DNA from: a virus
Direction: 5' to 3' (one strand)
Length of the DNA: 43,119 nucleotides
Virus genome (UHGV): UHGV-0017337
Shown here piece after piece: positions 24,674 to 41,949 of the stretch (positions are counted from its first letter, which is position 1; each line of letters starts with the position of its first letter). Both the position numbers and the translations under genes were made by a program. The notes beneath the pieces are model-generated. The model had not been told where the DNA came from, did no database searches, and worked only from the letters and a program-made list of their open reading frames with translations.

Positions 24674-24715
24674 TTAAAATAATTCTTGACGAATTACACC
24701 AACGCAACTATCTTG
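24674..24715 (+). promoter_or_regulatory. Conserved early promoter element copy 2 (-35 TTGACG, 17 bp, -10 TATCTT)
   Basis: TTTAAAATAATTCTTGACGAATTACAC...; followed by AAGGAG RBS. Confidence 0.55.
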
Positions 24716-24745
24716 TGGTTAACAGGAAGAAAAAGGAGACATGCA

Positions 24746-24814
24746 ATGATTTACTACATACTGGCTTTCATGATTTTCGCAGCACCTGTGATCGTAGGAA
24801 TAGTAAGAGGTTAA
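24746..24814 (+). CDS. Micro-ORF, 22-aa hydrophobic peptide (MIYYILAFMIFAAPVIVGIVRG)
   Basis: Not in track; AAGGAG RBS 7-8 nt upstream; first ORF after promoter copy 2. Confidence 0.3.
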   Translation: MIYYILAFMIFAAPVIVGIVRG

Positions 24815-24818
24815 TAGT

Positions 24819-25367
24819 ATGAACGAACTGACAAACACCAACGTTGATTTCACAATGTCCAGCCTGGATTTCTTGAAGAATGTTATCAACCCAGCACGTG
24901 TGGCTGAAGGTGAGGAAGTCTGGGTCCGTCATAATGATTTCTTAGCCAGAGTTAAGGATGAATTAGAAGGTCAAGTTTTGGTTACGAAACTTTTCACACC
25001 CAAACTTCAGGGAAGAGGTGGCAATAGAAAACCGTTTGAAGTGGTCGATCTAAACATGGATCAAATGCTTCTTGTGGGTATGCGTGAATCTAAAGCCGTT
25101 CGCAAAGCTGTATTAGCCAAATTAAAGAAGTTGAATAACCACCAACACCAACCATTACTACAGTTACAGTGTGAAATCGGAGAATTGCACAAACAGAATG
25201 ACGAACTACGTAACGAAATTGAAGTCAATCGTAAGACCTATGATTTGTTGTTGGTAGACATGAAAAAGTTATGGGAAGAGAAAGAAAATCTACAAAAGGA
25301 ATTAACTGCTTTGCGTAAACAGGATGATGTTCGTAAACGTGCGCTTAAACTTTTACTTGGATTATAA
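24819..25367 (+). CDS. Rha/antirepressor-like phage regulatory protein with C-terminal coiled coil
   Basis: Weak resemblance to Rha-family core (G..KP......DQ.LLVGM..SKA) by eye; first sizeable early gene. Confidence 0.3.
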   Translation: MNELTNTNVDFTMSSLDFLKNVINPARVAEGEEVWVRHNDFLARVKDELEGQVLVTKLFTPKLQGRGGNRKPFEVVDLNMDQMLLVGMRESKAVRKAVLAKLKKLNNHQHQPLLQLQCEIGELHKQNDELRNEIEVNRKTYDLLLVDMKKLWEEKENLQKELTALRKQDDVRKRALKLLLGL

Positions 25368-25370
25368 GCT

Positions 25371-25532
25371 ATGGGTAAAAAGAAACGGAAACAGCCTGTC
25401 AAGAAAGAACCATATAAACCACGACATGTTAATGAGTTATGGGCTAAAGATGTGGACGACTTTACTGAATCTGACTGGAGTAAAGTCACAAGATTAATCG
25501 TTAAATTAAAACGTCTATCAAGGTACGCATAA
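25371..25532 (+). CDS. Small basic protein (53 aa, MGKKKRKQPVKKEPYKPRH...)
   Basis: Not in track; in-line with neighbours, stop overlaps next start. Confidence 0.3.
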   Translation: MGKKKRKQPVKKEPYKPRHVNELWAKDVDDFTESDWSKVTRLIVKLKRLSRYA

Positions 25533-25807
25533 TGTGTGATTGCATGAAAAAAGTTGGTGACGAACTTCAAAAACGTCTGATGGAAAAAGTACCAGTAGGT
25601 TCGGAAGTCAGCACTAACCTGTTTGATAAAGTTGGCTGGGATAATCAGTGTTTCGGTCTGACGTCTGGTAAAACTCACGTTATGTTGAAATATCGTCTTG
25701 CATACCGCGCTAAAAAGAAAAACGGTGAACTGGCGAAGAACTTCACACGCCTGGAAACCAACATCAAAATGTCTTATTGTCCGTTCTGCGGGGAGAAACA
25801 GGAATGA
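25532..25807 (+). CDS. Cys-rich putative zinc-binding protein (91 aa)
   Basis: CDC...C...CPFC arrangement. Confidence 0.35.
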   Translation: MCDCMKKVGDELQKRLMEKVPVGSEVSTNLFDKVGWDNQCFGLTSGKTHVMLKYRLAYRAKKKNGELAKNFTRLETNIKMSYCPFCGEKQE

Positions 25808-26016
25808 ATAAATTAACAGTAGAACAAGCGGTTGTGTTATCTGGTTTTACAGGGTTACTACATGGATCGCTCAACAAATTTCATGAGGATTTGGAAAAAC
25901 GAATGGGGCGTCCGGTATTTAGTCACGAATTGGGTAGTAAAGAGTTTACTGCAAAAGTCAAAGAACTTTACCGTGATGATTTCATAGCAATGCAGCCCGA
26001 TAACGCCGAGGAATGA
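25804..26016 (+). CDS. Hypothetical protein (start at Met10 of track ORF)
   Basis: ATG overlaps upstream stop. Confidence 0.3.
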   Translation: MNKLTVEQAVVLSGFTGLLHGSLNKFHEDLEKRMGRPVFSHELGSKEFTAKVKELYRDDFIAMQPDNAEE

Positions 26017-26249
26017 TAATGGGAATGAAACAGATTTGGGATGGTAAAAACCTTCCTCCCGTTGGTTGTGAAGTGTTGATCCATCTGGCAAGCATTAACA
26101 AGTGGGTGGTACGAACTGTTCAGGGTTATGAAATATGGCCTTCTGTTTATGAAAATGATACTGCACATCACAGGATAAACATAAAATTTGAAGATAATGT
26201 TCGTCTGTTATGTGATGTGCGACCTCTTGACTGGCGTGAACCTGATTAA
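26013..26249 (+). CDS. Hypothetical protein (78 aa)
   Basis: ORF track; last gene of + strand block, convergent with head morphogenesis gene. Confidence 0.3.
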   Translation: MIMGMKQIWDGKNLPPVGCEVLIHLASINKWVVRTVQGYEIWPSVYENDTAHHRINIKFEDNVRLLCDVRPLDWREPD

Positions 26250-40690: not shown

Positions 40691-40691
40691 T

Positions 40692-40733
40692 TTAAAATAA
40701 TTCTTGACAGATTACACAAGGATGTGTAAATTA
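40692..40733 (+). promoter_or_regulatory. Conserved early promoter element copy 9 (-35 TTGACA, spacer with TTACAC/GTGTAA inverted repeat, -10 TAAATT)
   Basis: TTTAAAATAATTCTTGACAGATTACACAAGGATGTGTAAATT. Confidence 0.6.
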
Positions 40734-40767
40734 CTCACATAGACAACAAAAAGTGAGGAACCGGAAA

Positions 40768-40956
40768 ATGAAAAAGTTCGAAACTAAAGCAGAGTGTGAA
40801 AAATACATCGTAGCTGAATACGGTGAATGTGCTTTTCAGGTCGGTGTAATTTTCGCTTATCGTGTAAAACCAATCGAAGCAAAAATGTTTGGTTTGGTTG
40901 AAGGTTCTTATATGTCCAGTAATGAATTTGATGAAGCAACAGGTTACGGTCGTTAA
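40768..40956 (+). CDS. Hypothetical protein (62 aa, start at Met6 of track ORF)
   Basis: GTGAGGAA RBS. Confidence 0.35.
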   Translation: MKKFETKAECEKYIVAEYGECAFQVGVIFAYRVKPIEAKMFGLVEGSYMSSNEFDEATGYGR

Positions 40957-41162
40957 TGAATTATATTCCAAAATGCCTTCGTGAAATACCGAAGGTAAAA
41001 CAAAAACCCCGTAAACAAGCGATAAAAGAAGCGAAAATTGAGGCTTTCAATATCGCCATTTCTATAATCAACGATAAATGTCGTATCGAAAAATCTGATC
41101 GCATGAAATCAAACATGTTTTCAGCAATAAGCGAAATAGCGATTTTACGTGATAAGCTATAA
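40956..41162 (+). CDS. Hypothetical protein (68 aa)
   Basis: ORF track. Confidence 0.3.
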   Translation: MNYIPKCLREIPKVKQKPRKQAIKEAKIEAFNIAISIINDKCRIEKSDRMKSNMFSAISEIAILRDKL

Positions 41163-41165
41163 AAC

Positions 41166-41185
41166 GCCCCGTAAGGGGCTTTAAC
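41166..41185. terminator. Hairpin between convergent genes (weak terminator)
   Basis: GCCCC-GTAA-GGGGC followed by TTT. Confidence 0.35.
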
Positions 41186-41248
41186 ACCCTACCCTGTACT
41201 ATCGCACCACCCAACCCTGTTTATCGAAAACGCAAACGGTTTCCGGCG

Positions 41249-41884
41249 TTATTTCAACGCCTTCTGATACAGTTGTGCGATGTCGTCGATAGTTGCACCT
41301 TCAGGAACACTCTGAACCACGTTACCAACCACGCCAGACAATTCCACACGGTCGATACTGTTCCCGGTGATCTTATCCAGTTGTTCAGACGCTTTTGCAC
41401 GAGTTTTCGGGTCGAACAGTTCACGCGTCACCAGAATGTATCCACCCAGCATGTAACGTTTGTAGCAAACTACGTACTGTTGCAGATGGCTGGGGATATC
41501 GTCGGTACTGTTCACCCACAGGTGTTTCGCTTCTGTGTCGTCTTCACCAGGAACGATGACACGCTGACAATACGGTTCCAGTAATTCTTCAGCCGTGCTT
41601 GCTGCTCGTTTCCACCACTCGACACGACTCGTTAACGATTCCCCGACAGACTCAAGCGCATGACTTCCCATCGCGTCCAGATAGTTCAACACCTTTGTAT
41701 TCGACAGGAGGCGGTGTGCGGTGACTTTAGCTGCGTCAGGGTCTTTATGCCCCGGATAAGCGTGTAAGACGCACTGAGCGTTGCTGAAGCCGTTATTGAC
41801 ACGATCTAACCACAGGTTAGCGAAACGGAGTTGATCGGTTGTTAACTCCAGAGCAGCCCTTTTAGCCCGGTCTGAAATTTTCAT
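41249..41884 (-). CDS. Terminase small subunit (start at Met21 of track ORF)
   Basis: N-terminal LTTDQLRFANLWL...NAQCVLHAY....DAAKVTAHRLLSNTKVLNYL fits the small-terminase HTH pattern; GGAGA RBS. Confidence 0.5.
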   Translation of the reverse strand: MKISDRAKRAALELTTDQLRFANLWLDRVNNGFSNAQCVLHAYPGHKDPDAAKVTAHRLLSNTKVLNYLDAMGSHALESVGESLTSRVEWWKRAASTAEELLEPYCQRVIVPGEDDTEAKHLWVNSTDDIPSHLQQYVVCYKRYMLGGYILVTRELFDPKTRAKASEQLDKITGNSIDRVELSGVVGNVVQSVPEGATIDDIAQLYQKALK

Positions 41885-41949
41885 AAATTTGTCTCCCATA
41901 AATTTTAAATTAGTTTCCCACAGATACCCACGGGTTGTCCACACGCCCT

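Follow-up and report, generated by a model that had tools for sequence, protein, structure and literature searches.

The window, the whole 43,119-nucleotide (nt) stretch of DNA of virus genome UHGV-0017337, raises the question of how the packaging and head genes of a tailed phage come to lie one by one among blocks of small genes on the opposite strand. In its 24.6-42 kb region the small terminase (TerS), large terminase (TerL), portal and head morphogenesis (MuF) genes stand on the minus strand, and four plus-strand blocks, which we call A to D, separate them. An earlier reading of the bare sequence (the original prediction) had proposed either repeated insertion of promoter-driven cassettes or alternating early and late transcription units. 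The answer that we consider probable is that this is a 9NA-like phage with an ancestral four-slot scaffold, whose minus-strand units would have signals of their own and whose slots are filled by promoter-led cassettes that turn over.

Separated head genes and opposite-strand blocks

The four genes called in the original prediction proved to be correctly identified and placed, as judged by PHROG, Pfam and PDB matches and by annotated relatives:

41249..41884, minus strand: TerS, small terminase (PHROG 51 'terminase small subunit', 7.5e-12)
34599..36362, minus strand: TerL, large terminase (PHROG 2, 4e-17)
30473..31834, minus strand: portal, Mu-type (Pfam Portal_Mu, PF06074, 9e-23; PHROG 113, 2e-63)
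26246..27205, minus strand: head morphogenesis protein MuF, Mu F / SPP1 gp7-like (Pfam Phage_Mu_F, PF04233, 6e-11; PHROG 2468, 1e-70)

TerS matched no Pfam family and no PDB relative, and its call is based on PHROG 51 and the annotated homologous TerS genes of relatives. The Pfam match of TerL by itself falls under the curated cut-off; its nuclease domain matches Sf6 gp2 and another solved large terminase in the PDB (~1e-10), and tblastn reaches 142 phage records, with up to 99.8% identity to annotated TerL proteins. PF06074 and PF04233 both exceed their curated cut-offs, as expected of a Mu-type head module. The gaps TerS-TerL, TerL-portal, portal-MuF and MuF-next head gene measure 4.9, 2.8, 3.3 and 1.9 kb, and the blocks of small plus-strand genes predicted there are present, four in number with 5-14 genes each:

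24673..26249, plus strand: block A, five small genes (24819..26249) with a promoter repeat at 24673-24714 (open reading frame (ORF) map, PHROG)
28611..30440, plus strand: block B, dUTPase and four small genes in two promoter-led cassettes (PHROG 135)
31913..34466, plus strand: block C, six genes (ORF map, PHROG, Pfam)
36693..41162, plus strand: block D, 14 small genes in three cassettes, D1-D5, D6-D12 and D13-D14 (PHROG, Pfam)

The portal-MuF interval does hold such a block, as had been claimed, but is not purely plus-strand, since a minus-strand unit of three genes, one of them a 71-amino-acid (aa) ORF, is also there:

27379..28503, minus strand: unit with three small genes, located between MuF and block B (Pfam, PHROGs)
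27745..28503, minus strand: DUF6378 protein (Pfam DUF6378)
27379..27573, minus strand: NinH (Pfam NinH, 1.6e-18)

Might the alternation be an artefact of spurious plus-strand mirror ORFs, or of a misassembled or inverted contig? Many of the ORFs are small, and D6, D8 and D10 found no family match in the PHROG and Pfam searches. Against this, the plus-strand ORFs are real genes, because strong family matches (dUTPase 4e-53, RdgC 4e-113, a Tad2-like gene 1.6e-25, with most others matching PHROG or Pfam families) go together with a GC skew that changes sign along with the blocks. The region is moreover colinear with at least eight independently sequenced genomes. On these three grounds we rejected an artefact, to which we assign practically no probability.

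Identity of the genome

When compared with other phages, the 17-kb region (window 24.6-42 kb) matched 26 phage records, all on the opposite strand. The top matches are the E. coli phages vB_EcoS_AVIO78A (AVIO78A), BDX09P1 and PJ16, at 94-95% identity and 70-76% coverage; identity is 83-88% to the Salmonella phages Solent, Sergei, Sasha and 9NA and ~80% to Klebsiella phages. This identity to AVIO78A and BDX09P1, which is 94-96% over 76% of the head half and 92% of the tail half, together with the opposite-strand matches of the region, indicates that the window shows a 9NA-like siphophage (Nonanavirus/Sashavirus) of E. coli/Salmonella in reverse complement. Synteny agrees, with TerS, TerL, portal and MuF in the canonical order and small-gene blocks between each. 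Within this group, to which Carvajevirus and, more distantly, Gorganvirus also belong, gene order, separation of the four genes and strand alternation are the same as in the window; TerL is 96-99.8% identical to that of the E. coli, Salmonella and Klebsiella members. The window differs in that no single record covers more than 76% of the interleaved region and in having its own cassette set.

Mosaicism is stronger in the head-gene half than in the tail half: coverage by BDX09P1 is 76% at 94.4% identity in the former and 92% at 95.6% in the latter (window 1-24673). 9NA itself is reported to package by a pac-site headful mechanism, its DNA being circularly permuted and terminally redundant (PMC4153490), and the group includes an E. 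coli K-12-compatible member, KarinMuster/Bas82 of the BASEL collection.

Interleaving across relatives

That separated terminase and portal genes are unusual, as the original prediction remarked, was already published: Casjens et al. noted in 2014 that the head and packaging genes of 9NA are interspersed (PMC4153490). The interleaved architecture is thus a known hallmark of the 9NA-like group and not peculiar to this genome. AVIO78A, 9NA, Sasha, Solent and Klebsiella phage Carvaje have the same gene order and strand alternation as the window. The same interleaving is found in Proteus phage PmiS-Isfahan (Gorganvirus) and in the metagenomic bat-faeces 'Flyfo podovirus Tbat2_2', whose TerL is 59-61% identical to that of the window; homologies were confirmed by tblastn in an orthology matrix. 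Within the Enterobacterales group, identity across the four head genes is 83-100%. TerS is 94% identical at the aa level to the annotated TerS of AVIO78A, 86-94% identical across AVIO78A, Sasha, 9NA and Carvaje, and 31-34% identical to its positional homologues in Isfahan and Flyfo. Among the 9NA-like phages, Isfahan and Flyfo, no relative with homologous TerS, TerL, portal and MuF has any two of them adjacent. Persistence of the arrangement down to 59-61% TerL identity indicates that the scaffold is ancestral to the 9NA/Gorganvirus clade.

This bears directly on the possibility that cassettes or morons were inserted recently and independently into an operon that was contiguous in the phage's immediate ancestor. 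Such insertion would explain why block content differs even among ~95% identical phages; clean insertions exist, and phages with a related TerL (Magia) or portal (CRP-6) do have contiguous modules. However, the four slots, on the same strands, occur in all relatives to 59-61% TerL identity, including those of a different host genus; a dUTPase beside the portal is kept in Isfahan and Flyfo; and no two of the head genes adjoin in any relative. The original prediction's reading of the four blocks as recent insertions fails on this shared order; for the blocks as wholes it is largely refuted, and we consider it very improbable.

In more distant phages the arrangement differs. Vibrio phage 1.098.O and Enterobacter phage Mulvp2 (TerL 49-50%, portal 38-39% identical) carry 8-10 small genes between TerL and portal on the same strand and represent intermediate forms; in Mulvp2 these genes follow TAAAATAATTGTTGAC-type promoter-like sites. 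Unlike the window, Burkholderia phage Magia (TerL 40% identical) has a contiguous one-strand series TerS-TerL-portal-MuF-protease-major capsid protein, and Roseobacter phage CRP-6 (portal 29% identical) has TerL and portal contiguous or overlapping on one strand. As outgroups, Rhizobium phage P106B and Magia were rejected: TerL is all that they share with the window, their portal, MuF and TerS not being detectably homologous to its own, and they exemplify the usual contiguous order without being able to polarise the change. A contiguous ancestor further back than the 9NA/Gorganvirus clade is plausible.

A putative promoter repeat at the head of each cassette

A sequence common to the divergent intergenic regions, TTTAAAATAATTCTTGACA, recurs as a promoter repeat: the window contains ten copies of it (up to 3 mismatches) against 0.03 expected, and none of 100 shuffles reaches ten. 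Nine are on the plus strand and one imperfect copy is on the minus strand. Eight plus-strand copies (24673, 28534, 29676, 31875, 32772, 36426, 38102 and 40691) fall in the region, where they head blocks A, B, C and D or sit inside B, C and D; the ninth, at 14482, is in the tail region. The repeat scan located:

24673-24714, plus strand: promoter repeat at the head of block A
28534-28575 and 29676-29717, plus strand: promoter repeats of the two block B cassettes
31875..31916, plus strand: degenerate promoter repeat (-35 = TAAGCA) that runs straight into the endonuclease ORF of block C
32772..32813, plus strand: intact promoter repeat that overlaps the 3' end of the endonuclease ORF and heads C2-C6
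36426..36467, plus strand: promoter repeat heading block D, TTGACA-17-TATATT with an AT-rich UP-like element
38102..38143, plus strand: internal promoter repeat heading D6-D12
40666..40732, plus strand: composite of a bidirectional terminator hairpin (40666-40685) and the promoter repeat (40691-40732) heading D13-D14
24340..24388, minus strand: imperfect promoter repeat facing the head operon, TTGACG-17-TACCCT, followed by CCTGTGGTAAA

The consensus, tTTAAAATAATTCTTGACgGATTrCA, runs from an AT-rich UP-like stretch through a consensus -35 into the spacer, of which it includes the first 7 nt. Drawn from 59 copies (50 distinct) in 8 phages, it is at least 90% conserved over ~20 of 26 core positions, and 3' of the core a variable spacer leads to a TAnnnT -10 at 17-18 nt. 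The -35 consensus TTGAC(A/G), with TTTAAAATAATTC upstream, and this conservation support the reading of the repeat as a conserved sigma-70/UP-like promoter. The original prediction's statement that the blocks have their own promoters and terminators appears to be right by virtue of this specific repeat rather than of generic promoter counts.

Repeat positions in 9NA, Sasha, Carvaje and AVIO78A match the heads of their blocks, and the copy at 32772..32813 is the counterpart of the relatives' single block C promoter. A single minus-strand copy is found in the head-region locus of each of the seven relatives scanned except Carvaje. In Isfahan and Flyfo the divergent regions 5' of TerL and portal hold repeats of 64-102 nt that contain related cores (TTGACAGATTA; …CTTGACAGATTA…), and Mulvp2 has TAAAATAATTGTTGAC copies immediately after TerS and TerL. 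In AVIO78A, members of this promoter family stand before the run of genes from helicase to DNA polymerase and before two further non-structural units.

Cassette turnover

Block genes are patchy across relatives in the presence/absence matrix, unlike the head genes. Block B is the best conserved of the four, and its dUTPase adjoins the portal on the opposite strand in Isfahan and Flyfo too. Block D is the most variable, with a TerS-TerL gap that is, by annotation, narrowest in Sasha (0.9 kb, 3 genes) and widest in Solent, a near-twin of Sasha (5.5 kb). The genes that figure in this comparison are:

28611..29114, plus strand: dUTPase, block B (PHROG 135, 4e-53)
31913..32788, plus strand: C1, T5orf172/GIY-YIG-type putative homing endonuclease (PHROG 681, 1e-78; Pfam T5orf172, MUG113)
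38994..39911, plus strand: RdgC, block D (4e-113)
40059..40325, plus strand: Tad2-like anti-Thoeris gene of 88 aa, block D (Pfam Thoeris anti-defence 2, 1.6e-25)
about 14463-15838, plus strand: polymorphic promoter-led cassette of ~1.36 kb between tail assembly chaperone and tape measure (relatives' alignments)
14554..14733, plus strand: Imm-like 59-aa gene of that cassette, behind promoter repeat 14482
14735..15838, plus strand: T5orf172 endonuclease of that cassette, a paralogue of C1

The region was aligned to seven relatives by blastn and the alignments were chained, which yielded 63 unique breakpoints of homology; seven of these lie within promoter repeats (1.7 expected under a uniform null). 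Our claim of recombination is based on two alignments with the crossover inside the repeat and not on this statistic. The single promoter between TerL and TerS in Sasha combines the left flank of the window's 36426 copy with the right flank of its 40691 copy; Sasha is without 4240 bp (D1-D12), and the two alignments overlap by 25 nt inside the repeat. Likewise, the single promoter of 9NA combines the left flank of the 38102 copy with the right flank of the 40691 copy, with 2562 bp absent (D6-D12, including RdgC and the Tad2-like gene) and an overlap of 27 nt inside the repeat. The 40691 copy is the right crossover of both indels.

Other cassettes come and go as well. The Tad2-like gene belongs to a cassette missing from 9NA and Sasha and has no tblastn counterpart in AVIO78A or Carvaje; in comparisons of DNA only, Solent has no homology to it, BDX09P1 matches its last 17 nt only, and in 536P12 the entire segment is missing. 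For D8 the four relatives of the protein matrix have no counterpart, and in the other three it falls in a DNA-homology gap; D11 has a counterpart, a partial one, only in BDX09P1. Of the relatives compared, BDX09P1 alone has A1 (24819..25367), in part (DNA homology to 25413), and the four in the protein matrix are without it; DNA homology to AVIO78A, 536P12 and 9NA ends at 24698, within the block A promoter. A 921-bp segment with the C1 endonuclease, bounded by the degenerate and intact promoter copies, is absent from AVIO78A, 536P12, Sasha and Solent, and none of the seven relatives compared has the endonuclease at the block C promoter.

In the tail region, the Imm-like gene and endonuclease form a cassette that is present in the window, BDX09P1, KarinMuster, PJ16 and 536P12. 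AVIO78A is without it, its chaperone and tape measure genes lying 71 nt apart with a junction that can be read base by base; for PDP46, Sasha, Solent and Sergei, matches to the query were confined to its chaperone flank, consistent with absence of the cassette. Its promoter region, 14482-14545, is 94% identical to 29676-29739 in block B. This insertion exemplifies at the present day the process that could have made the head-region slots. Cassette insertion as originally predicted therefore survives in part: for single cassettes the 4240-bp and 2562-bp indels and the 921-bp and ~1.36-kb insertions support it as a continuing process, but as a recent origin of the four blocks it finds no support, since all 9NA-like phages examined share the interleaving.

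Candidate signals of the minus-strand units

At the ends of the minus-strand units lie the following elements:

41166..41179, minus strand: hairpin and U-run terminator after TerS (dG -10.5 kcal/mol, z = -1.7; weakest of the set)
34472..34491, minus strand: strong terminator after TerL (dG -17.3 kcal/mol, z = -3.8)
30445..30466, both strands: bidirectional terminator at the convergent B/portal junction (dG -14.1 kcal/mol minus, -13.6 kcal/mol plus)
27234-27211, minus strand: hairpin-U terminator after NinH (dG -15.9 kcal/mol, z = -5.2)
27211..27248, minus strand: TGTGATATAAT-type extended -10 element (27236-27246) overlapping the NinH terminator, directly 5' of the MuF start
36394..36406, minus strand: conserved CCCGTGGTAAACT element 32-44 nt 5' of the TerL start, a putative -35-less extended -10 promoter

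The B/portal terminator has z scores of about -4.6 (minus) and -4.8 (plus), and the TerL hairpin has no U-run on the plus strand. With the repeat at the head of every plus-strand block and hairpins at the B/portal, C/TerL and D/TerS junctions, the second idea of the original prediction, that separately promoted and terminated units alternate, gains support from the sequence.

In front of the units, the window, AVIO78A, 9NA, Sasha and Carvaje all have exactly GTGGTAAACTGTACAGAAC before TerL, and the sequence further upstream diverges. The element upstream of MuF, TGATATAAT, is conserved in AVIO78A, 9NA and Sasha and reads TGATACAAT in Carvaje. The portal is preceded in relatives by CTGATATAAC, where the window's segment has been replaced; the head operon is preceded by CCCGTGGTTAACT in 9NA, Sasha and Carvaje and by CCTGTGGTAAA in the window; and the tape-measure gene is preceded by CGTGTTAAACT, after another terminator. 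We read these TGnTAnnnT-type elements as putative -35-less extended -10 promoters, and the series of TGnTAAACT/TATAAT elements suggests one late promoter per minus-strand unit.

Alternatively, a single late transcript might start upstream of TerS and be antiterminated in the manner of lambda Q, running antisense through the plus-strand blocks; the minus-strand hairpins would then insulate only early in infection and the upstream elements would not be promoters. Every minus-strand unit ends in a terminator that would have to be overcome, and a 100-nt repeat with iterons lies 5' of both TerS and the head operon, with equivalents in Flyfo and Isfahan, a pair that looks like two regulated entry points rather than six. 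Yet the parts examined yielded no antiterminator gene, Q-like or other, and a near-consensus extended -10, TGATATAAT, stands directly before MuF and overlaps the preceding terminator. Moreover, GTGGTAAACT before TerL is invariant while its flanks diverge, and a similar element follows a terminator before the tape measure. We regard antitermination as unlikely, if less so than recent insertion of the blocks, and prefer separate late promoters.

The repeat in question is a 100-nt direct repeat, 90% identical between 24469-24568 (5' of the head operon) and 42165-42264 (5' of TerS), both large divergent intergenic regions. It is flanked by the palindromes CTAATACA…TGTATTAG at 24582-24678 and by at least 5 copies of the iteron GCACAACATGCACTA in 41976-42456. 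Flyfo (L009 9177-9573 and 23523-23918) and Isfahan (L002 8646-8712 and 23618-23684) have equivalent long repeats at the corresponding two sites. The window's repeat could be a late-regulatory, pac or origin region.

Comparison with PeSLs and morons

In T4-type phages the PeSLs (promoter-early stem-loops) are repeated elements in which a strong sigma-70 promoter is combined with an AT-rich upstream region and a stem-loop (PMC2839356, PMC4122927); they sit in hyperplastic regions, where indels arise by recombination between copies (Arbiol 2010 PMC2839356; Comeau 2014 PMC4122927). In sequence, the window repeats share with them a repeated sigma-70-like promoter with an AT-rich upstream region, placed before small unknown genes in variable regions, and indel boundaries between close relatives at repeat copies, as in the Sasha and 9NA indels. 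One window copy, the composite at 40666-40732, has the PeSL-like order of terminator and promoter; its hairpin folds with a dG of -13.5 kcal/mol and is the only one in the window to precede a repeat copy. There are also differences. The window phage is a ~58 kb siphovirus, unlike the T4-type carriers; conservation in its repeats covers the UP-like element, the -35 and the 7 nt of spacer next to it; and its cassettes stand on the opposite strand between core head genes. A stem-loop is not constant, a perfect inverted repeat of at least 6 bp being found in 12 of 50 distinct copies (-35 to +5), and for this reason we do not file the repeats as PeSLs.

A moron, in the sense of Hendrix and colleagues, is a gene, equipped with a promoter and a terminator of its own, that has been inserted between late genes of a lambdoid phage. 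Here too, extra genes with putative expression signals of their own stand between virion genes that adjoin in other phages, and the concept fits the Imm-plus-endonuclease cassette between chaperone and tape measure directly. Blocks A-D are unlike morons in being multi-gene, multi-promoter and held in conserved slots across genera rather than single recent additions. Flanking genes that adjoin in relatives were found only for the chaperone/tape-measure cassette and for the endonuclease within block C; in none of the relatives examined are the genes that flank blocks A-D adjacent. As to signals, a promoter repeat is present at each cassette head, and terminators are present at B/portal, C/TerL and D/TerS and within D, and lacking at A/MuF and behind several internal cassettes.

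Further observations

The last block A stop codon overlaps the MuF stop (TTAA, 26246-26249), and Sasha and Solent have an annotated terminator at this junction.

At 36385-36404 (minus strand), GTGGTAAACT is followed at once by an inverted repeat, AACTGT-ACAGA-ACAGTT, with the palindrome CTGTACAG inside it. This repeat is conserved: AVIO78A, 9NA and Sasha have the window's sequence unchanged, and Carvaje has one substitution in the right arm (ACTGTT). It could be an operator or a hairpin of the 5' untranslated region.

On the 3' side of TerL the window has no minus-strand sub-block, whereas all relatives have 1-3.7 kb there. In those with annotation, the extra sequence consists of minus-strand small genes, with in Sasha an additional 1.5-kb plus-strand homing endonuclease. 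A breakpoint at 34572-34598, at the TerL stop codon, appears in every comparison except that with Carvaje, where homology is lost further upstream.

The block D leader (36474-36692, ~220 nt from promoter to first ORF) has two hairpin-forming stretches, GTAACCCGGAATTGTCCGG… and CACCATCTGGTTGGATGGTG, and 9NA has a comparable gap of ~270 nt at this position. An Rfam scan of the entire window, this leader included, gave no match.

The motif CCCGTGG occurs 22 times in the window (~6 expected) and CCCGTGGT 15 times (2.8 expected). In 24.6-42 kb, 11 of 13 CCCGTGG copies are on the minus strand, in differing reading frames and also antisense to plus-strand genes; minus-strand copies include 28205, 28967, 29371, 29941, 31223, 35040, 35536, 36406, 36773, 39351 and 41934. 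The excess is seen in all Enterobacterales 9NA-like loci and not in Isfahan, Flyfo, the Vibrio phage or Mulvp2. We rejected CCCGTGG(T) as a genome-wide late-promoter mark, its intragenic copies not being positionally conserved among relatives. Only the intergenic copies are candidate promoters, and codon-pair effects may contribute to the excess.

In-frame tandem repeats occur at three places: a 30-nt unit at window 1-90, which runs off the left end; three perfect 21-nt units at 24071-24140, inside the 139-aa ORF heading the head operon; and three perfect 21-nt units at 43051-43119, which run off the right end.

Discussion

The arrangement that we favour would work as follows. Head and packaging genes would form a series of short minus-strand units (TerS; TerL; portal; DUF6378-NinH; MuF; the head-tail operon), each with a hairpin-U terminator at its end and a -35-less TGnTAAACT/TATAAT element in front that would act as a late promoter. 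The opposite-strand units between them would be strings of cassettes, each headed by one promoter repeat and probably transcribed by host RNA polymerase as early or middle transcripts, a timing suggested by the presence of the same promoter family before the helicase-to-DNA-polymerase gene run. Their cargo would span nucleotide metabolism, recombination, anti-defence, a homing endonuclease and unknown genes. The four head genes and the four opposite-strand slots would have been present in the common ancestor of the Enterobacterales 9NA-like phages and Proteus Gorganvirus, and since then slot contents would have changed as cassettes were gained, lost and replaced, by homologous recombination between promoter copies (the two indels) and by insertion of promoter-plus-endonuclease cassettes (at two sites).

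Several points weigh against this account. A generic scan gave counts not above those of shuffles (48 promoters against 41, 16 terminators against 17.5), and such counts are not used as evidence here. Most breakpoints, 56 of 63, lie outside promoter repeats, so that the repeats are one route of turnover among several; the enrichment was tested against a uniform null only and would be weak against 'any gene junction'. The window's own portal upstream region is without the TGATATAAC element of its relatives. At the A/MuF junction there is no terminator and the stops overlap, so transcription of block A should run antisense into MuF. Early and late classes are suggested solely by cargo and promoter type, and strand is no clean proxy for timing, since one repeat copy is directed towards the head operon and AVIO78A has replication genes on both strands. 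Finally, the contiguous outgroups share one gene each with the clade, either TerL (Magia, P106B) or portal (CRP-6), for which reason a contiguous ancestor is plausible and no more.

A bolder proposal, to which we would give somewhat less than an even chance, is that the 26-nt core is a siphovirus counterpart of the PeSL, which would both drive early expression and provide portable homology for cassette swaps, with the head cluster as an evolved landing pad. If this is true, cassettes with anti-defence (Tad2-like) and homing endonuclease genes would swap between essential head and tail genes on the opposite strand, and the head genes would tolerate them by each having its own -35-less late promoter and its own terminator. 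The fragmented head cluster would then be a landing pad for accessory genes and not a decayed operon. The suggested mechanism would show how an essential, normally rigid gene cluster can stay functional though permanently split by fast-evolving cassettes, on condition that the essential genes keep their own promoters and terminators and that the cassettes carry a standard promoter which doubles as recombination homology. The variable slots would be natural places in which to look for new anti-defence and host-takeover genes and, in engineering, to insert payloads.

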